64,000 nt of DNA, taken from Stegostoma tigrinum. Taxonomy: Eukaryota. The stretch is taken from the NCBI RefSeq assembly GCF_030684315.1, contig NC_081362.1:97261187-97325186 (forward strand), given 5' to 3'. The notes below the pieces were generated by a model. It was given only the letters and a program-made list of their open reading frames with translations. It was not told the origin of the DNA and made no database searches. This document shows, piece by piece, positions 17,401 through 52,496 of this stretch (position 1 is the stretch's first letter; every line of letters starts with the position of its first letter). Position numbers and translations under genes: made by a program.

Positions 17401-18135
17401 GGCTATTCCAGTAAATGATGTCTGTGCAGTTTGGTGATGACGAATCAGAAGGCTACTATCCTACTTTACTGAATTCAGCACAATGTGGTTGACCTTGTTA
17501 TCTCAGATTCTCCAGCATCAGCAGTTCCGAGTATGTCTCCCACAAATCAGAATCATAATGTTATTTGACATAAGACTTTCCCAGCCTGGGTTACAGTGCA
17601 ATTTATACTGACCGAATCATAAATGGATGAAACAACCAAAGTAAAAGACACAAAAATCATGTAAAATAACAAAGAAGCAAGCAATTTAGCAGGAATAGGG
17701 AAGTGGTGGATGGGATATTAATGGCAAAGATGAATTAATACTGAATGAAAATTATAATGCAGTACACAGCTCCGACATACCGACATTGAAGTCCATGTAA
17801 TCATTAGCTGTTCAGAGCTCAGAATCTCAGAATTCTTTATTGCTCAGGAGGCCATTCAGCCCATTGAACTTGCTGCAGCTGTTCAAATGAGCAGCATTCC
17901 TCAGTGTGAATCCTCCAGCCTTTCCCACATACCCTTACACATCGTTTCTATCCAATTAACCCTCCAACAGCCTCTTGAATGAGAGGCCTAATTTATCTGG
18001 AGACTGTAACACAACCCCTGGAGTCCGGGTATCATTCTTGTAAACTGATGTACTCCCTCCAAGGCCAACCGATCCTTCCCAGGTCTGCTCCAAGCGGGAT
18101 CTAACCAGGGTTTTCTTGGTTTTGTTTCTATTCAG

Positions 18136-18351
18136 ATCGAGGGGACGCAGAGGCTCCTGAATAAAGACCTGGCTGAACTGATAAACAAGATGAAATTGGC
18201 CCAGCAGAATGCTGTGACCTCGCTGAGTGATGAGTGTAAGAAGCAGATGCTAACAGCTGCCCACACACTTGCTGTGGACTCCAAGAACCTGCTGGACGCT
18301 GTGGATCAGGCCAGGGTTCGCGCAGGACAAGCCAAACCACTCCCTAACTGA
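18136..18351 (+). CDS. PTK2B: PTK2B terminal coding exon (IEGTQRLLNKDLAELINKMKLAQQNAVTSLSDECKKQMLTAAHTLAVDSKNLLDAVDQARVRAGQAKPLPN*)
   Basis: TTCAG acceptor; AQQNAVTSLS.ECK is Pyk2-specific (FAK has AQQYVMTSLQQEYK); TGA at 18349-18351. Confidence 0.97.
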   Translation: MEGTQRLLNKDLAELINKMKLAQQNAVTSLSDECKKQMLTAAHTLAVDSKNLLDAVDQARVRAGQAKPLPN

Positions 18352-25100: not shown

Positions 25101-25262
25101 TGTCACACTCCCTTAGCACTGACCCTCCGACAGTGCGCGCTCCCTCAGCACTGACCCTCCAACAGTGTCACACTCCCTCAGCACTGACCCTCCGACAGTG
25201 CGGCTTCCCTCAGCACTGACACTCCGACAGTGCGGCATTCCCTCAGCATTGACCCTCCGACA
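22107..25262. repeat. 33-bp minisatellite array (CCCTCAGCACTGACCCTCCGACAGTGCGGCACT)n, ~3.15 kb
   Basis: Direct tandem repetition; variation concentrated in the 7-8 nt after ACAGTG; C-rich on the + strand. Confidence 0.97.
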
Positions 25263-32661: not shown

Positions 32662-32713
32662 ATGTTTAGCCCATGGCCTGTAGTCCTGGCTCTGACTGTG
32701 TGTATTGCAGTGG
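32662..32713 (+). CDS. Exon 1 (leader, MFSPWPVVLALTVCIAV-G) of the novel double-VJ Ig-superfamily receptor
   Basis: ATG followed by a hydrophobic 17-aa signal peptide and a G|GTAAGT phase-1 donor, typical of Ig/TCR-type leader exons; joins in frame to 42432. Confidence 0.75.
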
Positions 32714-33026
32714 GTAAGTACATCCTCAAAGTGGGTTCAGGTTTGTTTCATTACATCTCACAGTTTGATACCAAGGTGTCGCTTATGGTCCGAATGTTCT
32801 GCTTAAGGATTGCGAGTGGTTTGACTTGAAGGGAAAATGCAGCATCAGATATGACATTGAATCAGTCGCTCACTGAGATCAGCCCAGTCTGCAGCAGGTA
32901 TCTCCACAACAACTGGCAAGAGGATGCACTCGTCTGAATGACACCAGACCCACACACTCTGCTCCAAACTCCACACTCATGTCAATGTGATCAGTGAGTG
33001 CGAGCTGTCAGACCGTGAACGATCAG

Positions 33027-36000
33027 AGTGTGTGAGGGCGTGTTAGCTGTCACAGTGTGAGGGCGTGTGAGCAGTCAGTGTGAGGGAGTGTGAGCTGTCA
33101 CAGTGTGAGGGCGTGTGAGCTCTCGGTGTGAGGGAGTGTGTGTTGTCGTTGTGAGGGAGTGTGAGCTGCCACACTGTGAGGGGGTGTGAGCAGTCAGTGG
33201 GTGAAGGAGTGTGAGCTGTCACACTGTGAGGGCATGTGAGCTATCGGTGTGAGCTGTCACAGTGTGAGGGCTTGTGAGCAGTCAGTGTGAGGGAGTGTGC
33301 GCTGTCACAGTGTGAGGCATTGTCAGCTGTCGGTGTGAGGGTGTGTGAGCTGTCACATTGTGAGGGAGTGTGAGTAGCCAGTGTGTGAAGGAGTGTGAGC
33401 TGTCGGTGTGAGGGTGTGTGAGCTGTCACAGTGTGAGGGAATGTGAGCAGTCAGTGGGTGAAGGAGTGTGAGCTGTCGGTGAGAGGGCGTGTGAGCTGTC
33501 ACAGTGCGAGGGCATGTGAGCTGTCGGTGTGAGCTGTCACAGTGTGAGGCATTGTCAGCTGTCGGTGTGAGGGTATGTGAGCTGTCACAGTGTGAGGGAG
33601 TGTGCGCAGTCAGTGGGTGAAGGAGTGTGAGCTGTCGGTGTGAGGGCGTGTGAGCTGTCACACTGTGAGGAGGTGTGAGCAGTCAGTGGGTGGAGGAGTG
33701 TGAGCTGTCACACTGTGAGGGCGTGTGAGCTGTCACAGTTCGAGGGCATGTGAGCTGTCGGTGTGAGCTGTCACAGTGTGAGGGCGTGTGAGCAGTCAGT
33801 GACAGGGAGTGTGAGCTGTCACAGTGTGAGGGAGAGTGAGCAGTCAGTGTGAGGGAGTGTGAGCTGCCACAGTGTGAGGGAGTGTGAGCAGTCAGTGGGC
33901 GACGGAGTGTGAGCTGTCGGTGTGAGGGAGTGTGAGCTGTCACGGTGTGAGGTTGTGTTAGCTGTCACAGTGTGAGGGCGTGTGAGCAATCAGTGTGAGG
34001 GCGTGTGAGTTGTCGGTGTGAGGGAGTGTGAGTTGTCGTTGTGAGGGAGTGTGAGCTGTCACACTGTGAGGGCATGTGAGCTGTCACAGTGCGAGGGCAT
34101 GTGAGCAGTCAGTGTGAGGGCGTGTGAGTTGTCACAGTGTGAGGGTGTGTGAGCAGTCAGTGTGAGGGAGTGTGAGCTGTCACAGTGTGAGGCATTGTCA
34201 GCTGTCGGTGTGAGGGTGTGTGAGCTGTCACAGTGTGAGGGAGTGTGAGCAGTCAGTGGGTGAAGGAGTGTGAGCTGTCGGTGCAAGGGCGTGTGAGCTG
34301 TCACAGTGCGAGGGCATGTGAGCTGTCGGTGTGAGCTGTCACAGTGTGAGGGCGTGTGAGCAGTCAGTAGGTGAAGGAGTGTGAGCTGTCGGTGTGAGGG
34401 TGTGTGAGCTGTCACACTGTGAGGGGGTGTGAGCAGTCAGTGGGAGAAGGAGTGTGAGCTGTCACACTGTGAGGGCGTGTGAGCTGTCACAGTGCAAGGG
34501 CATGTGAGCTGTCGGTGTGAGCTGTCACAGTGTGAAGGCGTGTGAGCAGTCAGTGTGAGGGAGTGTGAGCTGTCACAGTGTGAGGCATTGTCAGCTGTCG
34601 GTGTGAGGGTGTGTGAGCTGTCACAGTGTGAGGGAGTGTGAGCAGTCAGTGGGTGAAGGAGTGTGAGCTGTCGGTGTGAGGGCGTGTGAGCTGTCACAGT
34701 GCAAGGGCATGTGAGCTGTCGGTGTGAGCTGTCACAGTGTGAGGGCGTGTGAGCAGTCAGTGTGAGGGAGTGTGAGCTGTCACAGTGTGAGGCATTGACA
34801 GCTGTCGGTGTGAGGGTGTGTGAGCTGTCACAGTGTGAGGGAGTGTGAGCAGTCAGTGGGTGAAGGAGTGTGAGCTGTCGGTGTGAGGGCATGTGAGCTG
34901 TCACAGTGCGAGGGCATGTGAGCTGTCGGTGTGAGCTGTCACAGTGTGAGGGCGTGTGAGCAGTCAGTAGGTGAAGGAGTGTGAGCTGTCGGTGTGAGGG
35001 TGTGTGAGCTGTCACACTGTGAGGGGGTGTGAGCAGTCAGTGGGAGAAGGAGTGTGAGCTGTCACACTGTGAGGGCGTGTGAGCTGTCACAGTGCGAGGG
35101 CATGTGAGCTGTCAGTGTGAGCTGTCACAGTGTGAGGGTGTGTGAGCAGTCAGAGTGAGGGAGTGTGAGCTGTCACAGTGTGAGGCATTGTCAGCTGTCG
35201 GTGTGAGGGTGTGTGAGCTGTCACAGTGTGAGGGAGTGTGAGTAGTCAGTGTGTGAAGGAGTGTGAGCTGTCGGTGTGAGGGTGTGTGAGCTGTCACACT
35301 GTGGGGATGTGTGAGCAGTCAGTGGGTGAAGGAGTGTGAGCTGTCACACTGTGAGTGCGTGTGAGCTGTCACAGTGCGAGGGCATGTGAGCTGTCGGTGT
35401 GAGCTGTCACAGTGTGAGGGCGTGTGAGCAGTCAGTGACAGGGAGTGTGAGCTGTCACAGTGTGAGGGAGTGTGCGCAGTCAGTGGGTGAAGGAGTGTGA
35501 GCTGTCGGTTTGAGGGTGTGTGAGCTGTCACACTGTGAGTAGGTGTGAGCAGTCAGTGGGTGAAGGAGTGTGAGCTGTCACACTGAGGGCGGGTGAGCTG
35601 TCACAGTGCGAGGGCATGTGAACAGTCAGTGTGAGGGAGTGTGAGCTGTCACAATGTGAGGCATTGTCAGCTGTCGGTGTGAGGGTGTGTGAGCTGTCAT
35701 AGTGTGAGGGAGTGCGAGCAGTCAGTGGGTGAAGGAGTTTGAGCTGTCGGTGTGAGGGTGTATGAGCTGTCACTGTGTGAGGGCGTGTTAGCTGTCACAG
35801 TGTGAGGGCGTGTGAGCAGTCAGTGTGAGGGAGTGTGAGGGCGTGTGAGCTGTCACAGTGTGAGGGCATGTGAGCTGTCATAGTGTGAGGGCGTGTGAGC
35901 TGTCGGTGTGAGGGAGTGTATGCTGTCGGTGTGAGGGTGTGTGAGCTGTCACAGTGTGAGGGAGTGTGAGCAGTCAGTGGGTGAAGGAGTGTGAGCTGTC

Positions 36001-37650
36001 GGTGTGAGGGTGTGTGAGCTGTCACAGTGTGAGGACGTGTTAGCTGCCACAGTGTGAGGGCGTGTGAGCAGTCAGTGTGAGGGTGTGTGAGGGCGTGTGA
36101 GCTGTCACAGTGTGAGGGCGTGTGCGCTGTCACAGTGCAAGGGCATGTGAGCTGTCGGTGTGAGCTGTCACAGTGTGAGGATGTGTGAGCAGTCAGTGTG
36201 AGGGAGTGTGAGCTGTCACAGTGTGAGGCATTGTCAGCTGTTCGTGTGAGGGTGTGTGAGCTGTCACAGTGTGAGGGAGTGTGAGCAGTCAGTGGGTGAA
36301 GGAGTGTGAGCTGTCGGTGTGAGGGCGTGTGAGCTGTCACAGTGCGAGGGCATGTGAGCTGTCGGTGTGAGCTGTCACAGTGTGAGGGCGTGTGAGCAGT
36401 CAGTGGGTGAAGGAGTGTGAGCTGTCGGTGTGAGGGTGTGTGAGCTGTCACTGTGTGAGGGCGTGTTAGCTGTCACAGCGTGAGGGCGTGTGAGCAGTCA
36501 GTGTGAGGGAGTGTGAGGGCGTGTGAGCTGTCACAGTGTGAGGGCATGTGAGCTGCCATAGTGTGAGGGAGTGTGAGCTGTCGGTGTGAGGGAGTGTGTG
36601 CTGTCGGTGTGAGGGAGTGTAAGCTGTCACAGTGTGAGGGCGTGTGAGCAGTCAGTGGGTGAAGGAGTGTGAGCTGTAGGTGTGAAGGCATGTGAGCTGT
36701 CACAGTGTGAGGGCTTGTGAGCTGTCGGTGTGAGGGAGTGTGAGCTGTCACAGTGTGAGGGAGTGTGTGCTGTCGGTGTGAGAGAGTGTGAGGGCGTGTG
36801 AGCTGTCACAGTGTGAGGGCATGTGAGCTGTCATAGTGTGAGGGAGTGTGAGCTGTCAGTGTGAGGGAGTGTGTGCTGTCGGCGTGAGGGAGTGTGAGCT
36901 GTCAATGTGTGAGGGCATGTGAGCAGTCAGTGTGAGGGAGTGTGAGGGCGTGTGAGCTGTCAGTGTGAGGGCTTGTGAGCTGTCACAGTGTGAGGGCTTG
37001 TGAGCTGTCACAGTGTGAAGGCGTGTGAGCAGTCAATGGGTGAAGGACTGTGAGCTGTCGGTGTGAAGGCATGTGAGCTGTCACAGTGTGAGGGCTTGTG
37101 AGCTGTCGTTGTGAGGGCGTGTGAGCTGTCGGTGTGAGGGAGTGTGAGCTGTCACAGTGTGAGGGAGTGTGAGCAGTCAGTGGACGAAGGAGTGTGAGCT
37201 GTCAGTGTGAGGGCGTGTGAGCTATCACGGTGTGAGAGAGTGTGAGCTGTAACAGTGTGAGGGCGTGTGAGCAGTCAGTGTGAGGGTGTGTGAGCTGTCG
37301 GTGTGAGGAAGTGTGAGCTGTCACAGTGTGAGGGAGTGTGGGCTGTCGGTGTGAGGGACTGTGAGCAGTCAGTGTGAGGGAGTGTGAGCTGTCACACTGT
37401 GAGGGAGTGTGAGCAGTCAGTGTGTGGGAGTGTGAGCTGTCAGTGTGAAGGAGTGTGAGCTGTCACAGTGTGAGGGAGTGTGGGCAGTCAGTGTGTGGGA
37501 GTGTGAGCTGTCAGTGTGAAGGAGTGTGAGCTGTCGGTGTGAGGGAGTGTGAACTGTCACAGTGTGAGGGAGTGTGGGCTGTCAGTGTGAGGGTGTGTCA
37601 GCTGTTGGTGTGAGGGAGTGTGAGCTGTCAGTGTGAAGGAGTGTGAGTTA
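33027..37650. repeat. ~4.6-kb G-rich modular satellite (GTGTGAGCTGTCACAGTGTGAGGG / GTGTGAGCAGTCAGTGGGTGAAGGA / GTGTGAGCTGTCGGTGTGAGGG)
   Basis: Direct inspection shows ~22-25-bp modules in shuffled order with larger duplicated blocks; it lies in intron 1 of the receptor gene. Confidence 0.97.
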
Positions 37651-38469
37651 GTGGTATATTGTAGATACCCAGTGAATTAGTAGGACGTACTTGCTGAGGA
37701 AGGAGCTGATGAGTGAATGGATGACTGATGGTCTCTGTTGGAAACTATCAGCTGACCATCACTGACCTGACATGTTAGTCATCTTTTAGCAGTTTGTGTG
37801 GCTGACCCCCACCTCGAGGCCAGCACAGGTTCCCACCCACCTTTCCCAGGTCCCTGTCTCTCTCTGGTTCCAAATCCACTGTGCGGAAATGATTGGTATC
37901 ACTATTAATCCAAAGATCTGGGCTCGTCCTCCCAACGCAATGGATAAAATCCCACTGTAACAGAGCTGTGCAATTTAAAATCTGGAAGAGATGCAGCAAT
38001 GGTGAACATGACGCTGTTGGAGAAACGCTCCTGGTTTAAAACCATAATCCTGTGTTCACTAATGTCCTTTAGGGAAGGAAACTGCCATCCTTATCTGGGC
38101 TGGCCTACATGTGACTTCAGACCCACAGCAATGTGGTTGACTCGAACTGTCCTCTGACAAGGCTCAGAGGGTCAATGTGCTTAGGGCAGTATGTACAGGC
38201 TTTACCCGTGATGTCCACATCCCATATGAGAAAATTAAATGTAGCCGAGATCCTGCAGGTGCAAGCCCTCCTGCTGTACTGGAAGGGTGGGATCAGTACT
38301 AGGGAACGAGCAGGAGAGGGAATGGGATTTACTGGGAACAAAGATACTAAAACAGAGCAGCTGGTCCTTGAGTAACTCAACAGGTCGGGCAGAATCTGGG
38401 GCTGAGGGAGAGAAAGAGTTAATGTTTCCAGTCTGATGTAACTCTTTAATCAGAACGCAAGAGCTTTTA

Positions 38470-41400
38470 TTTTAATTCATTTCGTGGGATGTGGGTGTTG
38501 CCGGCTGGGCCCAGCATTTATTGCCCATCCCTGGTTGCCCCCTTGAGAAGGTGGGAGTGAGCTGCCCTCTTGAACCCCTGCAGTCCATGTGCTGTGGGTT
38601 GAGCCACAATGGCATTAAGGGAGTGAATTCCAGGATTTTGACCCAGTGACAGTGAAGGAACGGTGATATATTTCAAAGTCGAGATGGAGAGTGGTTTTGA
38701 GGGGAACTTGCAGGGGGTGGTGTTCCCATGTATTTGCTGCCCTTATCCTTCTAGATGGAAGTGGTTGTGAGTTTGGAAGGTGCTGCCTGAGGATCTTTGG
38801 TGAGTTTCTGCAGGGCATCTTGTAGACAGTACACACTGCTGCTACTGAGTGTCGGTGGTGGAGGGAGTGGGATGTTTGTGGATGTGGTGCCAGTCATGCA
38901 GCTGCTTTGTCCTGGATGGTGTCGAGCTTCTTGAGTGTTGTTGGGGCTGCACACACCCAGGAAAGTGGGGAGTATTCCATCACACTCCCAGGGAGACAAT
39001 GGCTTAGTGGTATTATCACTGGGCTGTTAATCCAGAGACCCAGACAATGTACTGGGGACCAGTGTTCAAATCCTGCTATGGAAGATGGTGGAATTTGAAT
39101 TGAATAAATATTTGGAACTAAGAGTCTCAGAATGACCATGGATCTATTGTCGATCATTGGAAAATCCATCTGCTACACTCATGTCCTTGGGCGAAGGAAA
39201 CTACCGCCCTTACATGGTCTGGCCTCCACGTAACTCCAGACCCACATCGATATGATTGACATGTAACTGCCCTCTGGGCAATTGGGGATGGGTAATAAAT
39301 GCTGTCTTAGCCAGTGATGCCCTCATCCCATGAATGGCTAAAGAAAAAACTTGTCAGCCCAAGCCGGGATATTATCCACATTTTGTTGCATCTGAGCACA
39401 GACTGCTTCAGTACATGAGGAGTCACGAATGGTGCTGAACATTATGTAAACATTGGTGAGCATCCCCACGTCTGACCTTAAGAGGAAGAGAAGGTAATTG
39501 ATGAAGCAGCTGAAGGTGGTTGGGGCCTAGGACACTATCCTGAGGAACTCCATCAGGGATGTCCTGGAGCTGAGATGATTGACCTCCCACAACCACAACC
39601 GCCTCCCTATGTGTCAGGTCTGACTCCAACCACCGAGAGATTACCCCCCGATACCCACTGATTCCAGTTTTGCCAGGGCTCCTTGATGCCACACTCGATC
39701 GAATGCAGCCTTGATATCAAGGGCTGTCACTCTCACCTCACCCTCTGGAATTCAGCTCTTTTGCCCCTGTTTGAACCGAGGCTGTAATGAGGTCAGGAGC
39801 TGAGTGGCCCTGGCGGAACCCAAACTGGGCGTCACTGAGCAGGTTATTGCTGAGCAGGTGCTGCTCGATAGCTCTGTTACTGACACCTCCCATCACTTCA
39901 CTGATGATTGAGGGGAGGCTGATGGGGCTGTAATTGGCCGGTTGGATTTGTCCTGCTTTTTGTGTACAGGACATATCTGGACAATTTCCCACATTGTCAG
40001 GTAGATCCCAGTGTTGTAACTGCACCGGAACAGCTTGGCTAGGGGCACGGCAAGTTCTGGAGCATAAGTCTTCAGTACTATTGCTGGAATGTTGTCAGGA
40101 CCCACAGTCTTTGCAGTATCCAGTGTCTCCAACCGTTTCTTGATACTATATAGAGTGAATCGAATTGGCTAAAGACTGGTATCTCTAATGCTGGGGACCA
40201 CGGGAGGAGGCCGTGATACATCATCCACTCAGCACGTCTGGCTGAAGATTGCTGCGAACGCTTCAGCCTTATCTTTTGTACTGATGTACTGGGCTCTTCC
40301 ATCATTGAGGATGGGGATATTTGTGGATCCCCCCTCTTTCAGTGAATTATCACAACTGGATGTGGCAGGTCTGCAGAGCTTAGATCTGATACATTGGTTG
40401 TGGGATCACTTACCTTTCTCTATCATTTACTGTAGTTATGCAAATAGTCCTGATCCGCAGCTTCAACAGGTTAAAGACTCATCTTCAGGTATGTCTGGTG
40501 CTGCTCCTGGCATCCCCTCCTGCACTGTCCATTGAACCCCTTGGCTTGATGTTAATGGTTGAGTCGGGGATATGCTGGGCCACAAGATTACAAATTGTGC
40601 TGGAGTACAGTTCTGCTGCTGTTGGTGGCCCACAGCACCTCATGGATGCCCAGACTTGAGTTGCTGGATCTGTGTGAAGTCTGTCCCATTGAGCATGGTG
40701 ATAGTGCCACACAGCACGATGGAGGGTATTCTCAATGTGAAGGCAGGACTTCGTCTCCACAAAGACTGTGCGATGGTCACTCTTACCGTTACTGTCATGG
40801 ACAGATACAACTGCAGCTGGCAGATTGATAAGGATGAGGTCAAGTTTGTTTTTCCCTCTGGTTGGTTCCCTCACCACCTCCCACAGACCCAGTTTAGCTG
40901 CTATGGCCTATGGGACCGGACCAGCTCGATCAGTAGTACTGCTGTCGAGCCACTCTTGGCAGTGGACATTGAAATCCCCCACCCAGAGTACATTTTGTGC
41001 CCTTGCCATTCTCAGTGCTTCATCCAAGTGTTGTTCAGCATTGAGGAGTCCTGATTTGTCAGCTGAGGGGGGACAGTATGTGGTAATCAGCAGGAGGTTT
41101 CCTTGCCCATGTTTAAAATTGGAGCCATGAGATTTCATGGGGTTGAGAGTCAATGTTGAGGGCTCCCTCCCAAGAGTATCCCACTGCGTTGCCACATCCG
41201 CCGGCTCTGCCCTGATGTTGGAACAGGGCATATCCTGGGATCCTGATGGTAGTGTCTGGGACATAGTCATACTCACAGAATTGTACCTTAGAAACAATGT
41301 TGGGCTGATGCTTGACTGTTCTGTGAGACAGCTCTCCCAATGTTTGCACTACCCCCCCAACGTTAGTAGGAGGACATGGCAGGGTCGACAGGGCTGTTTC

Positions 41401-41785
41401 TGCCATTGTCTTTTCCGGCGCACGGGTCAATACCAGGTGATCCGTCCGGTTTCATTTCTTTGAGACCTCGTAACGATTGGTACAACCGAGTAGCTTGCTA
41501 GGCCATTTTGGAGGGCAACTAAGAGTCAACCACATTGCTGTGGGTCTGGAGTCACATGTAGGCCAGACCAGGTAAGAATGGCAGATTTCCTTTCCTAAAG
41601 GATGTTAGTGAACCAGATGGGTTTTTCTGACAATGGTTTCCTGGTGATCGATAGATCCTTAATTCCAGGTTTCTTTTAATTGAATTGAAATTGCACCATT
41701 TGGCATGGCAGGATTTCAGCCTGGGTCACCAGAACTTTACGTGGGTCATTGAATTAACAGCCTAGTGATGACACCACTAGAACAT
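38470..41785 (-). mobile_element. Near full-length degenerate CR1/L2-group LINE (APE endonuclease + RT, no visible ORF1) with a tRNA-like SINE head at its 5' end
   Basis: Minus-strand fragments: LGELSH...QPNIV, YCPPS, WVGDFNVH, LDLIL, GKSDH, GPDNIP, NYSPISL, AQFGFR, GVPQDSVLGP. 3' tail near 38470-38560; 5' end runs into SINE body at 41510-41785. Confidence 0.85.
38990..39348 (+). mobile_element. tRNA-derived SINE inserted in the LINE
   Basis: Same family as 1505-1835 and 54928-55280. Confidence 0.8.
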
Positions 41786-42431
41786 CTCCTTCCCTCATTT
41801 GATCTTCAAATCCTTTCAATGACAACCCCAGAATGTCACAGCTACAGGGACCAGCTGATTCATTCTGAATGCACAGGGTGTGAGGTTGTGTGGGGCTTAA
41901 GGTGTTGTGGGGGGTGCAGTGAACACAGTATTTTCAATATTTCAAGTGTAACTGACACACAAATGATTGGAATCTGTGATCCTCTGAAATTCTCTGCCTA
42001 AATCCATGTGAAATTGCTTTATGAAGTTTGTCAGTCTTAGAGTTGGAGTCCGGGGGTGAATCTTAAGTTTCCCATCCCCCCTTCACAAGAGGAGATCACG
42101 CATCATGAGCAGAGGGAGCTCGCTCTGTTTCGACCTCAGAGAGTTGGAGAACCCCCCTCAAAACTCTAAGGGTCACCGGACCTGAAACATTAACTCTGCT
42201 TTCTCCTTCACAGATGCTGCCAGACCTGCTGAGCTTTTCCAGCAAATCTGTTTTTGTTTCCCCTCAAAACGAGCCCAGCTTTATCTGTCAGAGCTGGCTG
42301 GCCATCAGTGGATGGATCTTGATCATGCCCATGTGCTGAGCAGCTGTAACCATGTGGGATCCGAGCAGTAACACAATTTTCTTCCTTTGGGCTCTTGGCT
42401 TTTCTGATCTTCTGTTATTTCCTGTGCACAG

Positions 42432-42785
42432 GTCCTCATGCATGTCCCATTCTCGTTCAGTTCCCGAAAGTTGTGAAAGTAGCAGAGGGTAAAGCTGTGC
42501 ATCTTCAGTGCAGTTTGGAGAGAAGCAGCAGAAATAACACAGTGGAGAATTACACTGTCCATTGGTACCACCCCGAAAACAAGTCGCACATCTTATTGAG
42601 CCACTTTGCAGGCGGCAGCGTTTACCGATCAAAAGGATTCTCTGAGCGGTTCCAGCTTTCCAGAAATGTAACCAGTAACAGTTACATTCTGACCATCAGA
42701 GACCTGAAGCTCACTGACACCAACACCTACATCTGTGGGATTTGGGGAAATATTTTTGGAAAAGGAACTCGACTAAATGTAACCA
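42432..42785 (+). CDS. Exon 2: V-set Ig domain 1 with germline-joined J-like strand
   Basis: CACAG acceptor, A|GTAAGT donor, phase 1/1, 354 nt. Motifs VHLQC, VHWY, RFQLSR, YILTI, DTNTYIC and FGKGTRLNV. Confidence 0.92.
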
Positions 42786-42959
42786 GTAAGTACCTTTTAT
42801 ATTATCTAGGCTTTATCTCAAATAATGTCATCACATAACTAATTAATTGCAAAATAGTGGCTCACAAATGTCTTGCTTTTGTAAATCTGAGCAATAAAGT
42901 ACAGAATGGTATAGACTTCAATATTAACCAGGGAACTGGGGCAAACTCTCCAACGGTTG

Positions 42960-43830
42960 GAGTCATACTTGACAAGTGGTTGTTGGAGGTCAGTCATCTC
43001 AGCTCCGGGGCATCTCAGCAGCAGTTCGTCAGGGTAGTGTCCTCAGCCCAACCACCTTCACTGCTTCATCAATGACGTTCCCTCCATCATAGGGTCAGAA
43101 GTGGGATGTTCGCCGACAACAAATGTTCAGTACCATTCACAACTCCTCAGATACTGAAACGGTCCAGGTCCGTGGCCACGAGATTCAGGAACAGATTCTT
43201 TTCTGCTATTATCAGACTTATGAACAGGGTTCTCAAATGTTAATTCTGATTTCTCTCTATCTGCACCTTCTATGTGGCTGTGACACTATATTCTGCACGT
43301 TGTTCTGTCACCCTAATGCGCTGTTTGATACGATCTGCCTGTAGTGTATTCAAAACACTTTTGACTGTATCTCAGTATGTGTGACAACAATATATCAATC
43401 AATGTCCAAATGCAGCAAGGCCTGGGCAATATCCAGACCTGAGCTGACAAATAGCAAGTAATATTCACAGCACACAAATGCCAGACTATGGCCATCTCCC
43501 AAAAGGGACAATCTAATCACAGCCCCTTGACAGTGAAAGGCATCACCATCATTGAACTTCTACTACCGACATCCCATCAGATACATTGGAAAACCATCCC
43601 CTGTAAGTTCCTCTCCATCCCACTCAACATCCAGGCTTGGAAATATATCACCATTCCTTCACTGTCGCTGGGTCAAAATCCTGGAATTCCCCCCTAATGG
43701 CATCGTGGGTCAACCTACAGCAGGGGGACTGCAGCAGTTCAAGAAGGCAGCTCACCCTCACCTTCTCAAGAACAACTAGGGTCAGGCAATAAATGCTGGG
43801 CCCAGCCAGCGACACCCTCATTCCTGGATT
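42960..43830 (+). mobile_element. Fragmented copy of the CR1/L2-group LINE family seen at 1-890
   Basis: Nucleotide similarity to 1-320 and 660-890, including the GGCAATAAATGCTGGG tail. Confidence 0.75.
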
Positions 43831-44243
43831 GCATTAAAAAAAATTGTAATTTCAAAACTCATGACTTTATTTTTCAATCCCTTCCTGACCTCACTCCTCC
43901 CCATCTCTGATCGCCACCATCCATAAGGATAATATTAATATTTGCGTTCTTTTCATTCTGGACCCTTAAGCATCCCCAGTTGTCATTTCTTCCCATTGAC
44001 AGCTGGTCCAAACTTTGTTTTATAAAGCTCCTGCAATGCTCCATTTGACACTTCCCATCATCAACGGTGCTATATACAAAGAAATTTTTGTTGATCTGAC
44101 TCAGTAACAAACTTAACACAACTGGTTCAGTCTTAGCTCATTGTTCAACATCTATCTTGTGTTGTTAAAACTGAGCCTTTGAAAACTGACAACACTGATT
44201 TTTGGACTAGATTCTAAGTTAATTGATGCTTTTTCCCTTAAAG

Positions 44244-44588
44244 GTGCAAATGCCCCAAACCTTCACCAGTATCTGATCCCAGAACATGTCACAGAGGGAC
44301 ACACTGTCCAGTTACAGTGCACCATGAGGAACGCCGCAGTGACACACACCGATGTTCACTGGTACCGGGAGCGAACAGAGAATAACACAGAGTGGGTTTT
44401 AACATATGATGTGAGGAACATCACACAAAGGAGCCCTGGATTCACTGATCGATTCCAGTCTTGCAGAGACCCCTCCAATAACAGCTTCATTCTGACCATC
44501 ACAAACGTGCAGCCCAATGACACTGGGGTCTATTACTGTAAAGTGTGGGGAGATATCAATGGGAATGGATCCCAGCTGACTGTAATGG
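44244..44588 (+). CDS. Exon 3: V-set Ig domain 2 with germline-joined J-like strand
   Basis: Pyrimidine tract + AAG acceptor, G|GTATGT donor, phase 1/1, 345 nt. Motifs VQLQC, VHWY, GFTDRF, FILTITNVQPNDTGVYYC and NGNGSQLTV. Confidence 0.92.
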
Positions 44589-44715
44589 GTATGTCCTGTT
44601 AACACAATCTGCATCAGGCCTCACATTGTGAGATGGCTGGAAAATATCCAAAATTTGAAATAATTTAACAGGAAGCTCTGTTTGCTCACAATGCCCCTCC
44701 TTTCTCTATTTCCAG

Positions 44716-44850
44716 TTCCTGCAGTGGAAATGAACAGAGAGTTGTGGATAGTCTGGATCAGTGTGGGAGCTGCTGTGGGAGTTACTGTCATCGCTGGAGC
44801 TGCTCTTCTCTTCTGTATCAGATGCACTCGGCCTGGGAAACAGTCATCCT
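44716..44850 (+). CDS. Exon 4: transmembrane helix and juxtamembrane CxxC (LWIVWISVGAAVGVTVIAGAALLF-CIRCTRPGKQSS)
   Basis: TCCAG acceptor (alternative in-phase CAG at 44724), T|GTAGGT donor, phase 1/1; 24-residue uncharged hydrophobic stretch. Confidence 0.88.
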
Positions 44851-45047
44851 GTAGGTGGAAATCAATCTTTCACTGAAACAATATTAATAAGGAATGATCC
44901 AGTTTGAGTGAATGGAACCACATATTGAAGTTAAATGAGAATGAACACCAGAATCAGATACAAAGAGAAATGTTTATTATTGTCCTCCGGTGATTACTTC
45001 ACTCTGTTTGTGCATCATTTAAAAGTAAACACTGTCCTCTTTTGTAG

Positions 45048-45121
45048 CTTCTCCCCAAGATACTAGAGAACACAGTCTGATGCTGGAATATGAAAACATT
45101 TCTGATTTCAGAAACACAAAG
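45048..45121 (+). CDS. Exon 5: cytoplasmic (SPQDTREHSLMLEYENISDFRNTK)
   Basis: CTCTTTTGTAG acceptor, AAG|GTAAGT donor; phase 1/0 gives an open frame with a tyrosine motif. Confidence 0.82.
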
Positions 45122-45494
45122 GTAAGTGGAATCAGGCTATCAGTTTCCTGCTTTTCTCTGTTATAGCAGCTTCGTTGTTGTAGATATGAAGTTTTATTGA
45201 CCTTTCGGTATCACCTCAGTACTGCCTCAGTCCTGGTTGTGAATGTCAAAAACATGGGTCTCTGCTCACCTCACCACTGGTCACAGTGTTCCAACATTCC
45301 CTTAGTAATGCCAGAGCTGTGCATGGCTTTAAACAAGCACACATCCCTAACAACATCACAGTGGTTACCATTGACCCAAAACTCTACTGGACTTGCTGCA
45401 TCAATACGCTGGCTGCAAGAGCAGGTCAGAGGCTGGGAATACTGCAGTAAGGAACTCACCCTCTGACTCCCCAAAGCCTGCCCACTATAAAGCC

Positions 45495-47170
45495 ATAGAC
45501 ATGTACACTACAGAGAAAGTTCTTTTAGCCCATCATGCCTACATCAGTCAAACACGGCTACCTAACTGCTCTAATATCATTGCCCAGCACTCGGTCCATA
45601 GCCTTGTGTGGCTTGGCATTGCAAATGCACATCTAACTATTCCTTCTATGTTATGAGGATTTCTACCTCTACCACCCTTACAGGTAGTGAGTTGCAGATT
45701 CTCACCATCTTTTGAGTGAAAAAGATTTATCTCATGTCGTCTCTAAACCTCCTGACCCTTCCCTTAAATCTATGCCCCCTGGTAATTGATCTCTCCATCA
45801 AAGGGGAAAAATTCCTTCCTGTCAACCCTGTCTTCATTCCTAATAAAGTTATCCCTCTCAATCATGTCCCCCCTCAGTCTCCCCTGCTCTAAGGAAAACA
45901 ACCCCAGTCAATCTAATCTCTATGTAACAAACTTCCCTGCACAGGCACCATCCTGGTAAATCTCCCTCTGCACCCTCTCCAGTGCTGTCACACCCCTCCA
46001 ATCATGGGGGTTCCAGAACTGCTCACAATACTCTAGCAGGGACCTCGTGTTTTACACAGTTCCAACATCACCTCCCTGTGCTTAAACTCTAATAAAGGCA
46101 GGCATACCATGTGCCTTCTTAGCCAGTTTATCAAGCTGTTCTGATTCCCTAAGAGACTGGGGGGAATGTACACCAAGGTCCCTCTGATCCCTCATGTTTC
46201 CCAGGGTCCTACAGTTCATCGTCTATTCCCTTACCTTGTTTGTTCTGCCCCAGTGCATTACCTCACAATTAACCAGATTGAATCCCATTTGCCATTGATC
46301 AGTCCATCCGACCAGTCTGTCTATGTCCTCCTGCAATCTAAGGTTATCCTCTTCACTATTGACCACTGTGAACCTACCTAAACCCTCCTGCGTTCAAGTC
46401 TAAATCATTTATACAAAGCACAAACATCAAGGGCCCTCACACAGATTCCTGTGTAATCCCACTGGACACAGGCTTCCAATCACATGGTCACCCCTTAACA
46501 GTCACCCTCTGCTGCTGCTGCTACTTGGCCGGCTGTAGATCCAATTTGCCGAGTTTCCTTGGATACCCATGGGAACTGCCCTTTACAACAGTGTCCCATG
46601 TGGGACCTTATCAATAGTCTTGCTGAAATCTGAGCAGACTATGTCAAAAACATTGCCCTGTTCTACATACACAGTAACTTCTTCAAAAAATTCAATCAAG
46701 TCTGCTAGACATGGCCTCCCTTTAACAAAACCACGCTGTCTGCGATTAAATAATCCCTGCCTCACCAAGTACAAATTAATTCAGTCCCTCCGAATTGCTC
46801 CCAATAGTTTCCCCACCATTGAGGCTAGACTGAGCAATCTGTACTTCCCTGGTTTATCCTTGTTCCCTCCTTGAATAACAGCACCACACTGACTGTCCTT
46901 CAGTCCTCTGGCACTTCTCCTGTAGCCAGAGAGGAATTGGAAAATTATTCCCAGTGCCTCTGCTGTTTGCTCCATTGTCTCCCTCACCAGCCTGGGATAC
47001 ATTTCCAGCTTGGAGATTTTTCTACTTTTAAGCCTGCCAGACCACTCAGGCTCTCCTGTCTGTCTGTGTTGATCTCTGTAATGGTATCACAGTCCTTACC
47101 CCTGATCTCTGTACCCACATTGTCCTTCTCACTGTGACACACAATAACCTGACCTACATCCGCTGGCTCC
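45495..47170 (-). mobile_element. Old degenerate CR1, antisense
   Basis: Minus-strand QRGFVKGRPCLADLIEFFEEV, DFSKTIDKVPH and PGKYRLLSL motifs. Confidence 0.8.
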
Positions 47171-47179
47171 ACATACTTG

Positions 47180-47537
47180 TTTTCAATTCATTCACAGGTT
47201 GAGGGCATTGCTGGCTAGGCACATTTATTGCCCATCCCTAATTACTCAGAGGGCAGTTAAGAGTCAACCACATTGTTGTGGGTCTGGAGTCACATCTAGT
47301 CAGGACCAGGTAAGGATGGGAGATTTCCTTCCCTGAAGGGCATTAATGAACCAGATGGGTTTTTTCCGACAATCGACAATGGATTCATGGTCATCATTAG
47401 ATTCTTAATTCCAGATATTTAATGAATTCACATTCCACCATCTGCTGTGATGGGATCTGAACCCAGGTCCCTGGAATGTTATCTGCGTCTCTGGATTAAC
47501 TGTCCAGCGATAATACCACTAGGCCATTGCCTCCCCT
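47180..47537 (-). mobile_element. tRNA-derived SINE, antisense
   Basis: Reverse complement of the 54928-55280 family. Confidence 0.8.
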
Positions 47538-48204
47538 ATTACCATGTGGCACACCATGGGCCCAACTCTTCCCCTAGTCATCCTTTTACTCTGAACATAC
47601 CTGAAAAACTCAGGGTTTTCCTTTCTTTTATCTGCCAGTACCTTTTCAATGCCCCATTAGCCCTGCTAATCTCCTTTCCAAGTTCTCTCTTGGACATTCT
47701 ACACTCATCCAGGGATTTGGCTGTTTTGAGCTCTCAGTATCTGCCATAAACCACCCTTTTTCTCTTAATCCAGTGCTGTATATCCCTAGATAGCTAAGAT
47801 TCACAGCATTTGATAGTTTCAACCTTTTACTTTACAAGGCACAAGTCAGGAGTGTGATGGAATACTCCCCACTTGCCTGGGTGAGTGCAGCCTCAACAAC
47901 ACTCAAGAAGCTTAACACCATCCAGGACAAAGCAGCCGCTTGATTGGCACCACATCCGCAAGCATCCACTCCCTCCACCACCGACACTCAGTAGCAGCAG
48001 TGTGTACTATCTACAAGACGCACTGCAGAAATTCACCAAATATCCTCAGGCAGCACCTTCCAAATCCACGACCACTTCCATCTAGAAGGACAAGGGCAGC
48101 AGATGCATACAGGGTGTGGTGTTACCATGTATCTGGTGGATGGAAGTGGTCATGGGTCTGGAATGTGCAGCCTGAGGATCTTTGGCGAATTTCTGCAGTG
48201 TACT

Positions 48205-49901
48205 GCCCTAAATGAGTTTTTTGCTTCTGTCTTTACGAAAGAAACCAACTTTGTAGTGAATGAAACCTTTGAAGAGCAGGTGTGCATGCTGGAATGGATA
48301 GAGATAGACGAAGCTGATGTGCTGAAAATTTTGTCAAACATTAAGATTGACAAGTCGCCAGGCCCGGATCAGATTTGTCCTCGGCTGCTTTGGGAAGTGA
48401 GAAATGCAATTGCTTCGCCACTTGCGAAGATCTTTGCAACCTCGCTCTCCACTGGAGTCGTACCTGAGGACTGGAGAGAGGCAAATGTAATTCCTCTCTT
48501 CAAGAAAGGAAATAGGGAAATCCCCGGCAATTATAGACCGGTAAGTCTCACGTCTGTCGTCTGCAAGGTGTTAGAAAGGATTCTGAGGGATAAGATTTAT
48601 GACCATCTGGAAGAGCATGGCTTGATCAAATACAGTCAACACGGCTTTGTGAGGGGTAGGTCATGCCTTACAAACCTTATCGAGTTTTTTGAGGATGTGA
48701 CTAGAAAGGTTGATGAGGGTCGAGCTGTGGATGTGGTGTATATGGACTTCAGTAAGGCATTTGATAAGGTTCCCCATGGTAGGCTCATTCAGAAGGTCAG
48801 GAGGAATGGGATACAGGGGAACTTAGCTGCTTGGATACAGAATTGGCTGGCCAACAGAAGACAGCGAGTGGTAGTAGAAGGAAAATATTCTGCCTGGAAG
48901 TCAGTGGTGAGTGGGGTTCCACAGGGCTCTGTCCTTGGGCCTCTACTGTTTGTAATTTTTATTAATGACTTGGACGAGGGAATTGAAGGATGGGTCAGCA
49001 AGTTTGCAGACGACACAAAGGTCGGAGGTGTCGTTGACAGTGTAGAGGGCTGTTGTAGGCTGCAGCGGGACATTGACAGGATGCAGAGATGGGCCGAGAG
49101 GTGGCAGATGGAGTTCAACCTGGATAAATGCGAGGTGATGCATTTTGGAAGGTCGAATTTGAAAGCTGAGTACAGGATTAAGGATAGGATTCTTGGCAGC
49201 GTGGAGGAACAGAGGGATCTTGGTGTGCAGATACATAGATCCCTTAAAATGGCCACCCAAGTGGACAGGGTTGTTAAGAAAGCATATGGTGTTTTGGCTT
49301 TCATTAACAGGGGGATTGAGTTTAAGAGTCGTGAGATCTTGTTGCAGCTCTATAAAACTTTGGTTAGACCGCACTTGGAATACTGCGTCCAGTTCTGGGC
49401 GCCCTATTATAGGAAAGATGTGGATGCTTTGGAGAGGGTTCAGAGGAGGTTTACCAGGATGCTGCCTGGACTGGAGGGCTTATCTTATGAAGAGAGGTTG
49501 ACTGAGCTCGGTCTCTTTTCATTGGAGAAAAGGAGGGGGAGAGGGGACCTAATTGAGGTATACAAGATAATGAGAGGCATAGATAGAGTTGATAGCCAGA
49601 GACTATTTCCCAGGGCAGAAATGGCTAGCACGAGGGGTCATAGTTTTAAGCTGGTTGGTGGAAAGTATAGAGGGGATGTCAGAGGCAGGTTCTTTACGCA
49701 GAGAGTTGTGAGAGCATGGAATGCGTTGCCAGCAGCAGTTGTGGAAGCAAGGTCATTGGGGTCATTTAAGAGACTGCTGGACATGTATATGGTCACAGAA
49801 ATTTGAGGGTGCATACATGAGGATCAATGGTCGGCACAACATTGTGGGCTGAAGGGCCTGTTCTGTGCTGTACTGTTCTATTTTCTATGTTCTATGTTCT
49901 A
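48205..49901 (+). mobile_element. Young 5'-truncated CR1 with uninterrupted RT and C-terminal domain
   Basis: Open ORF to 49806 with FADD catalytic motif; (TGTTCTA)n tail; short TGTACT flanking duplication. Confidence 0.95.
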
Positions 49902-51331
49902 TGTACTTTGTAGATAGCACGCACCCACTCACCATCCTGACTTGGAAATATATCACCGTTCCTTCAATGTTGCTGGGTCATAATTCAGGAATACCCTCCC
50001 GAAGGGCATTGTGGGTCGACCTACAGCACATGGGCTGCAGCGGTTCAAGAAGGCAGCTCAGCCCCACCTTCTCAAGAGGCAAATAGGGACGGGTAGTAAA
50101 TGCTATGACATCCACATCCCACAAAAAGGACGGGATGTGGCAGTGTGATTAAGGCAGGAAACAGTGACCCCAGGTTTCCAACAGATAGCTCCTAGCCTGC
50201 TTGAACAAAGAGTCAGATCCTGGGAGGATGATGGGCCTTAGTGATGAATTAAGTATCTTAAAGTCATGGCACCTTGCCATGACAGAAACCTTGCAAAAAG
50301 AAATTGAAATTTACATTTGATTTGAATGGAAGAAAAATGAATCCAACACTAGTATTCCAAACTGAAATAAAGGGAACTTATGTGGCCAGAAAGCCAAGAG
50401 ATTTCTGATGTGAGCTAGCATACTAGACTCCCAGGCTAGGAGATAGACCAATAGAGACAAAATGGCAGACACTAAGGGAGATATTTCAGTATACCTAGAA
50501 TAATTGTACTCCGACTATAAAGAAAAATTCTGAAGGGCCAACACACCACCTCTAGTTAACTATAGAACTTAAGGAAAACATCAAACCTAAGGAAACATCA
50601 TCTAACAATACAAAGGTGAGCAGCAGGTTAGACAATTAGCCAAAATATGAAGAATGCTAGAAAATGACTAAAAGGCTATTGAGATGGAAAAAATTAGAGG
50701 AGAAGAGGAAGTTAGCTAGAAATGTAAAAATGAATAACAAATGCTTTGGTAGGCATGAAAAGGAAAAATGTAAATAAAAGTAGATGCTGGTCTGTGAGAG
50801 AGAGTGTGAGAATGTTGATCCAATTGCAGATAAGGAAATGACAAATGAAATGCACTAACATGTTTCTTCTACCCTCACCACTGGGGTTACACAATCACAT
50901 TCCAGTTCCAAAGAGGAGCCAAATTCGACTCAACTGTTGACTGTTTTTCTCTCCACAGATGCTACCAGACCTGCTAAGTTTCTCCAGTTATTTTAGATTT
51001 TGAGCATCCCAGTATTTTGCATTTATCTCCAATGGATTTATTGGTGATTATATTTGTAAGCTTTGAGAAGCATCTGTTTTGTTTTTCCTTTATTCATTCA
51101 TGGGATGAGACTGTCACTGTCCAGGGTAGCATTTATCACCCGTCACTAAATGCCCAGAGGGAAGTTAAGAGTCAACCACATTGCTGTGGGTCTGGAGTCA
51201 CATGTAGGCCAGACCAGGTAAGGGTGGCAGTTTCCTTCCCTAAAGGATGTTAGTGAACCAGATGGGTTGTTCCAAAAATTGGCAATACTCTTAATTGCAG
51301 ATTTTTAAAAATTGAATTCAAATTCCACCAT

Positions 51332-51554
51332 AGATAATAAGGTGTAGAGCTAAATGAACACAGCAGGCTAAGCAGCATCAGAGAAGCAGGAAAGCTCACG
51401 TTTCAGGCCTAGACCCAAAATTCATTTCTGAAGAAGGGCCTATGCCTGAAACATCAGCTTTCCTGCTCCTCTGATGCTGCTTGGCCTGCTGTGTTCATCC
51501 AGCTCTACACCTTGTTATCTCAGATTCTCCAGCATCTGCAGTTCATACAATCTC
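51332..51554. mobile_element. Fold-back PLE-A mini-element inserted in an antisense SINE
   Basis: Inverted arms, CTGAAGA...GAAAC core, 14-bp TSD TCAAATT(C/T)CACCAT at 51318-51331 and 51555-51568. Confidence 0.8.
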
Positions 51555-51865
51555 TCAAATTTCACCATTGTGGGATTCGAACCCAGTTCTCCAAAACATT
51601 ATCTAGATCTCTGGATTAACAATTTGATTATAATACCACTATGCCATTGTCTCCCCCTGATATTTCAATATATCCTGTACTGTGTCCAGTTCTTCAATAT
51701 CCTTTTGCTGGAGAACTTGCCACAATCCTCCAAATCTTCAAACCAGGTGAAAATTAAACAAGTTTGTAGTTCTTGTGAATGATGAACAAGATGCTAAACA
51801 TCAGTGCAAACCAGTGAAGAACATTGTACATGTGACAATGTGTACACTGCAGAGCCATAACAAGA

Positions 51866-52251
51866 CTTTTCATTGGAGAAAAGGAGGAGGAGAGGGGACC
51901 TAATTGAGGTATACAAGATAATGAGAGGCATAGATAGAGTCGATAGCCAGAGACTATTTCCCAGGGCAGAAATGGCTAGCACGAGGGGTCATAGTTTTAA
52001 GCTGGTTGGTGGAAAGTACAGAGGGGATGTCAGAGGCAGGTTCTTTACGCAGAGAGTTGTGAGAGCATGGAATGCGTTGCCAGCAGCAGTTGTGGAAGCA
52101 AGGTCATTGGGGTCATTTAAGAGACTGCTGGACATGCATATGGTCACAGAAATTTGAGGGTGCATACATGAGGATCAATGGTCGGCACAACATTGTGGGC
52201 TGAAGGGCCTGTTCTGTGCTGTACTGTTCTATGTTCTATGTTCTATGTTCT
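51866..52251 (+). mobile_element. Young CR1 3' fragment
   Basis: Near-identical to 49515-49900; (TGTTCTA)n tail; AAGACT on both flanks. Confidence 0.92.
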
Positions 52252-52334
52252 AAGACTCTATAGTACCTATTTTACAATCTGTCAGTCCAGAGTTTCTATC
52301 CTTCAGTAATTTATATCATTCCATTTGGTTACAG

Positions 52335-52376
52335 AAACCAGATGATGTCCAAGTTGATGCTAATCAGATTTATATG
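52335..52376 (+). CDS. Exon 6: cytoplasmic (KPDDVQVDANQIYM)
   Basis: TTACAG acceptor, ATG|GTAAGG donor, 42 nt, phase 0/0; acidic residues before a Tyr; unique sequence among repeats. Confidence 0.65.
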
Positions 52377-52478
52377 GTAAGGAACCTAAAATCCAGTCAG
52401 TTCAGTCATTCCAAGCAACAATGTTCTATCAAAAAGTATTCATTCGTGTTTTTGTTTTCTCTCCTTTCTGTTAATAAG

Positions 52479-52496
52479 AATGTGCCTTCAAAATGA
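52479..52496 (+). CDS. Exon 7: terminal coding exon (NVPSK*), completing YMNV
   Basis: Long polypyrimidine tract then TAAG acceptor after a 102-bp intron; the total CDS of 1020 nt is a multiple of three. Confidence 0.6.
   Translation, partial: NVPSK

Follow-up and report, generated by a model that had tools for sequence, protein, structure and literature searches.

A predicted two-domain VJ receptor gene of Stegostoma tigrinum and its probable descent, within a cartilaginous-fish receptor family, from a joined sigma-2 light-chain exon

We analyzed a 64,000-nucleotide stretch of Stegostoma tigrinum DNA (the window; positions 97,261,187 to 97,325,186 of NC_081362.1, the contig called C11 here). 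At 32662..52496 on the plus strand it holds a gene for a predicted membrane protein with two antibody-like variable (V) domains, each carrying its own joining (J)-like strand (VJ domains). Taken as a whole, the explanation that we rate as rather likely is that this is an intact gene of a cartilaginous-fish receptor family whose VJ domains come from one germline-joined exon of a sigma-2 immunoglobulin (Ig) light-chain gene and whose tail is predicted to bind Grb2/Gads. Over framework regions 1 to 3 (FR1-FR3), the nearest nonfamily sequence was sigma-2 for 39 of 39 family domains. The third complementarity-determining region (CDR3) was six residues long in 242 of 242 parsed family domains (20 of 262 were not parsed).

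Gene structure and predicted protein

Read from the window sequence, the gene has seven exons on the plus strand, with AG acceptors, GT donors, and intron phases of 1, 1, 1, 1, 0, and 0; the spliced frame is open over 1020 nt and encodes 339 amino acids. A first-pass annotation, made from the sequence alone, had proposed these exons, phases, and frame, and re-splicing confirmed them. The whale-shark protein model P0053 matches the product in length and layout, with 301 of 339 residues identical. We concluded that the gene is intact and that its product is a predicted type I membrane receptor with two antibody-like VJ domains. Its features are as follows.

32662..32713, plus strand: exon 1, leader; 17 codons plus 1 nt, phase 1; 16 of 17 residues as in P0053
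42432..42785, plus strand: exon 2, VJ domain 1 (V1); CDR1 four residues longer than in sigma-2, six-residue CDR3, FGKG
44244..44588, plus strand: exon 3, VJ domain 2 (V2); gap-free against sigma-2 from Cys23 to Cys104, six-residue CDR3
44244..44588, plus strand: G strand of exon 3; Phe118 replaced, N-glycan sequon present
44716..44850, plus strand: exon 4, short stalk, uncharged transmembrane (TM) helix, and juxtamembrane cysteines; spliced in the X5 contig described below
45048..45121, plus strand: exon 5, tail with Tyr310; LEYENI is a YxN site and also fits a loose immunoreceptor tyrosine-based inhibitory motif (ITIM) consensus
52335..52376, plus strand: exon 6, tail up to Tyr333-Met; phase-0 intron where a paralogue's immunoreceptor tyrosine-based activation motif (ITAM) is split
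52479..52496, plus strand: exon 7, final five codons and stop; completes the second YxN, without a second ITAM tyrosine

Both large exons matched the V-set profile (Pfam PF07686; E values of 2.9e-15 for exon 2 and 7.1e-21 for exon 3), and each encodes a J-like G strand. No recombination signal sequence (RSS) was found within exon 2 or 3 or at either 3′ end, which agrees with the earlier description of VJ in one exon with no intervening RSS. Four weak RSS-like matches in 42000-45500 had 3 nonamer mismatches each and lay in introns or exon 5. The PDB relatives of exons 2 and 3 were antibody V regions, sequence and fold searches returning antibody fragments only; comparison with a protein atlas gave only generic V-set clusters (CD7, CD226, and NCR3-like) and no lead. 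The best 19-residue hydrophobic window (residues 267-285) contains no charged residue. There are 10 N-glycan sequons in the ectodomain and two tail tyrosines, at residues 310 and 333. Each V domain has the two canonical cysteines and one unconserved cysteine. The extra residues, Cys22 (exon 2) and Cys209 (exon 3), are absent in the whale-shark orthologue and might form a species-specific disulfide. Two long minisatellites, at 33030-37647 (intron 1) and 22195-25262, have units of ~25 and ~33 bases, and remains of a LINE-like reverse transcriptase lie in intron 5 and upstream of the gene.

Models with the same tail type were identical at 241 (bamboo shark), 210 (white shark), 210 (basking shark), and 194 (cloudy catshark) residues. 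Transcript evidence came from runs of relatives, presumed to be RNA; no listed RNA run was from the window genome itself. A 2223-nt contig from run X5 joins 44587 to 44715 and 44850 to 45048 at GT..AG and continues into exon-6 sequence after 45121. Run X2 also shows the 44850-to-45048 (exon 4 to exon 5) joint, and four runs of relatives cover exons 3-5, with zero coverage in flanking intron bins. The proposed junctions were thus seen for exons 3 to 4 and 4 to 5 and for the run-on into exon 6; those from leader to V1, V1 to V2, and exon 6 to exon 7 were not seen in the relatives' contigs and are supported by P0053. The V1-to-V2 joint was absent among the matches listed (119 others were not displayed, and intronic repeats crowded the search). 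The CxxC listed in the first-pass annotation (Cys284 and Cys287) is missing from all five orthologues (one cysteine in three, CxC in one, none in one), and its reading as a meaningful motif is not supported.

A receptor family related to sigma-2 light chains

We sampled 994 kb from C11:95.97-97.79 Mb (excluding 96.35-96.41, 96.55-96.59, and 96.80-97.26 Mb and other gaps) and found 56 V-exon-like loci, 31 of them intact. The same 994 kb held 16 TM-exon matches, broken ones counted; when exon 3 was used as a DNA query, all 42 matches fell on C11. A protein search identified 86 family proteins in 17 named shark, ray, and skate species, and a profile search added four from the chimaera Callorhinchus. 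Members have one to several VJ domains and no constant (C) domain. Judged by motifs only, opposing tails (ITIM plus immunoreceptor tyrosine-based switch motif [ITSM], ITAM, and TM arginine) accompany related ectodomains in one C11 cluster. We concluded that the window gene very probably belongs to a chondrichthyan paired-receptor family. Members occur in sharks, rays, skates, and chimaera, and what had looked like a lone odd gene is one member of a large family with one to several VJ exons and four tail types. Its description as an unnamed, non-rearranging chondrichthyan receptor stands; the 86 shark, ray, and skate proteins all carry automatic names.

The best matches outside C11 were loci on contig C60. 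These are L-V-12RSS/23RSS-J-C miniclusters; of seven read, three were split, three germline joined, and one broken. Their relatives include a skate chain (P0263) named "type I immunoglobulin light chain." Type I chains are sigma-2 (NS5), and germline joining is common among sigma-2 genes, according to passages of PMC5192425 and PMC5985310. The first-pass annotation had seen a likeness to Ig light-chain or T-cell receptor gamma (TCR-gamma) V regions; the light-chain half of this was upheld, specifically for sigma-2, and the TCR-gamma half was not.

Mean FR1-FR3 identity was 41.9% within the family and 39.4% to sigma-2. The other means were 29.4 (lambda), 28.9 (kappa), 26.5 (sigma), 24.7 (UrIg-like), and 22.1% (like the novel immune-type receptors [NITRs] of ray-finned fish), with IgH, TCR, CD8-like, and V-C1 rows also within 22-29%, several row labels having been assigned in the analysis by the kind of RSS, the C exons, the position, or known motifs. 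A family-only profile was then scored domain by domain on the best 150 proteins by whole-protein score, among which single-domain relatives below 111 bits could not appear. Among these, best-domain scores were 103.7-126.3 bits for sigma-2 V regions (overlapping divergent family members), 63.5 bits for the next nonfamily domain, and 37-41 bits for NITR-like I domains.

Between its canonical cysteines V2 shows no gap against sigma-2, and its CDR1 and CDR2 are 8 and 7 residues long, the sigma-2 lengths given in a section of PMC5985310; V1 has a longer CDR1. Exon 3 is 73% identical in DNA to a sigma-2 locus, L120, over 135 nt. Trp occupies the third CDR3 place in 221 of 242 family domains, as it does at the sigma-2 V end, and the six-residue CDR3 reads as a trimmed sigma-2 V end followed by a complete J. 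Because that length is invariant across all parsed domains, we infer a single inherited V-J joint. V exons splice to V or TM exons, not to C1 (CL), and none of 126 CL-like/C1 matches (150 of 251 candidates scored) was on C11. The Ig octamer, allowing up to 1 mismatch, is absent from the 400 bp upstream of the window ATG; it is present at -148/-149 in three of three sigma-2 loci.

L120 (G000:C60:3633682-3637176) is itself joined in the germline. Its CDR3, at six residues, is the shortest that we read in a sigma-2 chain, and whale and bamboo sharks retain the gene. We rejected it as the direct parent of the family: it nests among young carpet-shark sigma-2 genes and is an independent repeat of the same joint. 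Microhomology as an explanation of the recurring joint was set aside, a plain homology join being out of frame by one base. The sole sigma light-chain locus found (L172; G000:C38, near 36144500) has a frameshifted, pseudogene V segment with an intact RSS. A joined sigma-2-like VJ (L128; G000:C282:118231-118515) lies beside an IPO4-like start; two trees group it with skate chain P0298, and one places it outside family plus sigma-2.

V-region trees used FR1-FR3 only (98 columns, with CDR3 and J omitted) and row sets of 119, 56, 34, and 48, between which hand-chosen near-duplicates and long branches were dropped; no named NKp30 was included, and shark sigma was represented by one broken locus only. 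In the 119-row tree, the family was monophyletic (support, 97/90) and sister to sigma-2 (96/88). Under a mixture model with 56 rows, 13 of 14 family rows grouped (100/94), and family plus sigma-2 had support of 89/92. Family plus sigma-2 was also the best of 11 constrained trees on 48 rows, where the approximately unbiased (AU) test rejected only two constraints, a clade of all light chains that excludes the family (p 0.039) and family plus lambda (p 0.032). The tree expected for a captured sigma-2 exon was not rejected (p 0.33-0.44). From these comparisons, we conclude that the VJ domains probably originate from sigma-2.

Several results weigh against that conclusion. The mixture-model support for family plus sigma-2 was unstarred, and one long family row fell away. 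Placements of the family as sister to sigma plus sigma-2 (p 0.33), NITR-like (0.34), UrIg-like (0.18), CD8-like (0.40), V-C1 (0.43), and TCR-gamma (0.51) rows were not AU-rejected. A quick 34-row tree with a sigma-plus-sigma-2 clade excluding the family scored 4.08 log-likelihood units above the free tree. Of 39 family rows, only 21 have the 13/58 Cys-Trp-Cys spacing, which two of three shark IgH rows share. L120, the sigma-2 gene with the six-residue joint, arose too recently to have been the parent, and the family is sister to the elasmobranch sigma-2 sample rather than nested in it. The alignment has 98 columns, and because bony-vertebrate and chimaera sigma-2 and an intact shark sigma are missing from it, the trees fit both derivation from sigma-2 and an early sister position.

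The sister position is what would be expected had the family, still RAG-joined, left the light-chain line before sigma and sigma-2, or sharks and bony fishes, diverged and then been lost in bony vertebrates. Placement of the family outside sigma plus sigma-2 was not rejected on either set examined (p 0.33 on 48 rows; p 0.68 on the 34-row set). We consider this earlier split unlikely, with identity at 39% to sigma-2 versus 26.5% to sigma and with 63.5 bits not exceeded by any bony-vertebrate domain in the 150 matches listed (where single-domain proteins under 111 bits could not appear).

The first-pass annotation had offered two origins, a captured germline-joined VL-JL and a proto-antigen-receptor relic; the former gained support, and the latter, in its strict form, was rejected by the AU test. 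Such a relic would be a never-split VJ gene akin to the exon that RAG invaded, its sigma-2 likeness reflecting slow sigma-2 evolution. The single-exon VJ, split leader, lack of RSS, and presence in both chondrichthyan subclasses agree with this, and pairings with single non-rearranging rows were not AU-rejected. The strict tree, in which all rearranging V regions form a clade excluding the family, gave AU p values of 0.009-0.011 (LG+G4) and 0.011-0.045 (C20 rescoring), although this test was defined after the first tree had been seen. The likeness is to one isotype and extends to DNA, and the precursor proposed in the relevant part of PMC10751288 is a VJ-C1 gene in MHC paralogons, whereas none of the 126 C1-type matches lay on C11. 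We regard a relic as quite improbable.

NITRs raise a further alternative, that the family is their cartilaginous-fish orthologue. Both are clusters of VJ-type domains with ITIM and activating forms alike (sections of bioRxiv 2021.06.11.448072), and the family-plus-NITR-like tree was not rejected. The same sections define NITRs by an I domain with six conserved cysteines and place holostean NITRs near OR, runx1, and DONSON. A six-cysteine I domain is absent here (both window domains are of V type, with a J-like motif in each exon), identity to NITR-like I domains is 22%, and the neighbors are PTK2B and a nicotinic alpha gene. We give orthology very little credence.

Descent from sigma-2 would have proceeded as follows. 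Before the chimaera-elasmobranch split, RAG would have fused V and J of a sigma-2 gene in the germline, and trimming at the V end would have left a six-residue CDR3. The joined exon, without its C exon and octamer promoter, would have landed beside PTK2B and a nicotinic alpha2/alpha4-type gene, been linked to TM and tail exons, and multiplied into ITIM/ITSM, ITAM, and TM-arginine versions. We lean, by a small margin of confidence, toward the broader proposal that one such RAG-made joint, made before chimaeras and sharks diverged and stripped of its C exon, built the natural killer (NK)/myeloid paired-receptor complex that chondrichthyans had seemed to lack.

The neighboring genes and paralogues were read from the same contig. 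PTK2B is the upstream neighbor, and the nicotinic gene lies left of the main cluster, where PDB matches do not distinguish alpha2 from alpha4. Clusterin is on C4 and does not help with synteny. Human gene order could suggest an inversion that sets the family between PTK2B and CHRNA2, but we make no such claim.

18133..18348, plus strand: last coding exon of PTK2B (FAT domain), upstream neighbor; context only

The next paralogue (G000:C11:97359138-97374204; L104, L105) has one VJ exon, then a 1546-aa open frame consisting of a VJ and a long Asn/Gly/Ser-rich repeat stalk, and then a TM exon; a skate model, P0075 (1999 aa), is organized in the same way. At G000:C11:97667780-97673367 (L207, L208), a minus-strand TM exon has an arginine and a short tail, the adaptor-coupled type; an ITIM/ITSM tail exon lies 5 kb further on, and the TM of another copy, at 97.755-97.777 Mb, is uncharged. 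In an ITAM-type gene at G000:C11:96516580-96517089 (L081), a small tyrosine-bearing tail exon is present in 7 tandem copies with 76-base spacing.

Ectodomain face and tail motifs

Phe118 is retained in 32 of 242 family domains, and 105 of 242 have a G-strand glycan sequon; sequons number 3.4 per domain in the family versus 0.8 in sigma-2. The face predicted to pair VL with VH is eroded across the family. An AlphaFold model of P0053 shows both V domains, with a helix spanning 258-290 (mean predicted local distance difference test score, 74; predicted template-modeling score, 0.45; angle between domains unsure). It does not superpose as an Fv on single-chain variable fragments (root mean square deviation of about 14-15 Å). 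Among 11 intact paralogous exons, amino acid change peaked in CC′/C′, CDR2, and the G strand, with little change in CDR1 and FR3, a pattern compatible with ligand binding on the front face. Against this, ratios of nonsynonymous to synonymous change (pN/pS) in these 11 exons were below 1 for CC′ (0.83) and CDR2 (0.90), with no clear positive selection.

Given a V domain probably derived from a light chain, the protein could be a surrogate light chain that is anchored in the membrane and partners IgH as VpreB does; part of PMC5192425 describes VpreB and lambda5 as unknown in fish. The lack of a C domain, the protein's own tail, the eroded and glycosylated VL-VH face, the missing octamer, and the multi-V paralogues all argue otherwise, and we think this role highly improbable. 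As a paired-receptor family member, the protein would instead present its two domains as an extended, heavily glycosylated rod in which VL-like pairing with VH has been lost, and its GFCC′ front face may bind a cell-surface or pathogen ligand.

Family tails are of four kinds, classified with general consensus definitions of ITIM, ITSM, and ITAM: ITIM plus ITSM-like; ITAM type; a short tail combined with an arginine in the TM; and, in the window gene, a tail with two YxN sites. ITAM-type tails consist of a full ITAM (YMxL, seven residues, and YSEL), with or without a YEN ahead of it. The window tail is homologous to the YEN-plus-ITAM tails, with Tyr-Met at a phase-0 intron as in the ITAM paralogue at C11:96.44 Mb. 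The exon that follows Tyr333-Met has no second ITAM tyrosine, and the window tail is likely an ITAM tail clipped down to two YxN sites. All five orthologues retain Asn at +2 of both tyrosines, and YxNx is a GRB2/GADS site in the part of PMC11599192 on such motifs. Because of this conserved Asn and the homology to YEN-plus-ITAM tails, we predict, with fair confidence, a Grb2/Gads-coupled co-receptor.

The sign of the signal is less secure. TIGIT is a precedent for Grb2 bringing in SHIP1. The window protein might likewise be inhibitory, with Tyr310 acting as an ITIM (LEYENI fits that consensus, a point against the co-receptor prediction) or with Grb2 recruiting SHIP1. The TM is uncharged, and the window protein and all five orthologues each have exactly one ITIM-fitting tyrosine; in carpet sharks it is the first tyrosine that has Leu at -2, and in the other three orthologues it is the second. 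The -2 residue is thus unconserved at both sites whereas Asn at +2 is conserved, and the tail is homologous to ITAM-type tails rather than to the cluster's ITIM/ITSM tails. We hold inhibition to be a tentative second choice and favor a positive signal only slightly, since every orthologue has one ITIM-like tyrosine.

For the favored Grb2/Gads-coupled co-receptor, the uncharged TM would mean no DAP12 or FcR-gamma partner. Src-family kinases would phosphorylate Tyr310 and Tyr333, recruiting Grb2/Gads, and the output might be a co-stimulatory or tuning signal in leukocytes, weaker than that of the ITAM paralogues. A candidate alternative last exon would retain YENI and lose the second tyrosine; its C-terminal end is a hydrophobic stretch.

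56380..56586, plus strand: possible alternative last exon, open, phase-0 acceptor; matches whale-shark isoform X1 model P0087 (model only)

Significance and comparison with known systems

The usual view of single-exon VJ receptors is that they are relics of the gene that RAG split. If sigma-2 descent is correct, such receptors can descend from Ig/TCR genes instead of being ancestral to them, adaptive immunity having been recycled into innate immunity, and the family would be the first direct case in which a rearranged antigen-receptor gene gave rise to innate receptors. Lee et al. 2000 (PMC2193156) put forward the conversion of a rejoined Ig gene into a new receptor and stated that there was no direct example; the family, present in all three main chondrichthyan groups, looks like such a case. 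Its members are also specific candidates for the paired NK/myeloid receptors of sharks, and with broader sampling of sigma-2 the fixed six-residue junction would allow the direction of descent to be tested. Paired Ig superfamily (IgSF) receptors are themselves known; what is new here is one likely originating from a RAG-joined light-chain exon. A literature search found no paper on the family, although genome-paper supplements could list the genes and a prior description is possible. The family is not mentioned in the examined parts of PMC12227049.

Among known systems, sigma-2 (sigma-cart, type I, NS5) shares with the family its V framework, the 8/7 CDR1/CDR2 of V2, Trp in CDR3, J register, phase-1 donor, and split leader. 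The family differs from it in lacking C exon, RSS, and octamer, in having tandem VJ exons, a TM, and a tyrosine tail, in its eroded VH-pairing face, and in location (C11 versus C60). VpreB, the example offered in PMC2193156, is likewise a light-chain V that no longer rearranges, but it pairs with heavy chain and has no clear J, TM, or tail.

UrIg and UrIg2 are also chondrichthyan, non-rearranging, single-exon VJ genes with a split leader; the relevant sections of PMC12227049 describe them as VJ-C1n dimers in the MHC and AgRC, whereas the family has no C1 and about 25% identity to the UrIg-like row, whose label is inferred. PRARP and SIRP-like (VJ-C1) proteins have a C1 after VJ, which the window gene lacks. 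NKp30 has a single VJ and a TM arginine and is MHC linked; the window gene has two VJ domains, an uncharged TM, and PTK2B linkage.

In its tail, the window gene most resembles the CD28 group. The CD28H consensus Y-[EGVTA]-N-[VIMT], given in part of PMC11599192, fits YENI. CD28H, CD28, CD226, and TIGIT share with the window gene an uncharged TM and YxN tyrosines. The window ectodomain sets it apart from the CD28 family, being light-chain-like with two VJ domains and no CD28-family CDR3 motifs, as does its multigene paired family. CD8 and other Lck-binding co-receptors have a conserved cytoplasmic cysteine clasp, whereas the window CxxC is not conserved in any orthologue.

Skate MDIRs, like the family, are cartilaginous-fish multigene IgSF receptors with activating and inhibitory forms. 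They are CD300/TREM/pIgR-like in the portion of PMC3031540 that describes them, whereas the nearest relatives of the family are light chains; this separation is by description, not sequence. The closest working analogue is the NITRs of ray-finned fish, which are clustered, non-rearranging, and J-bearing, with inhibitory and activating forms. The family differs from them in its neighbors, its 22% identity, and its lack of the six-cysteine I domain, and it has ITAM and YxN tails.

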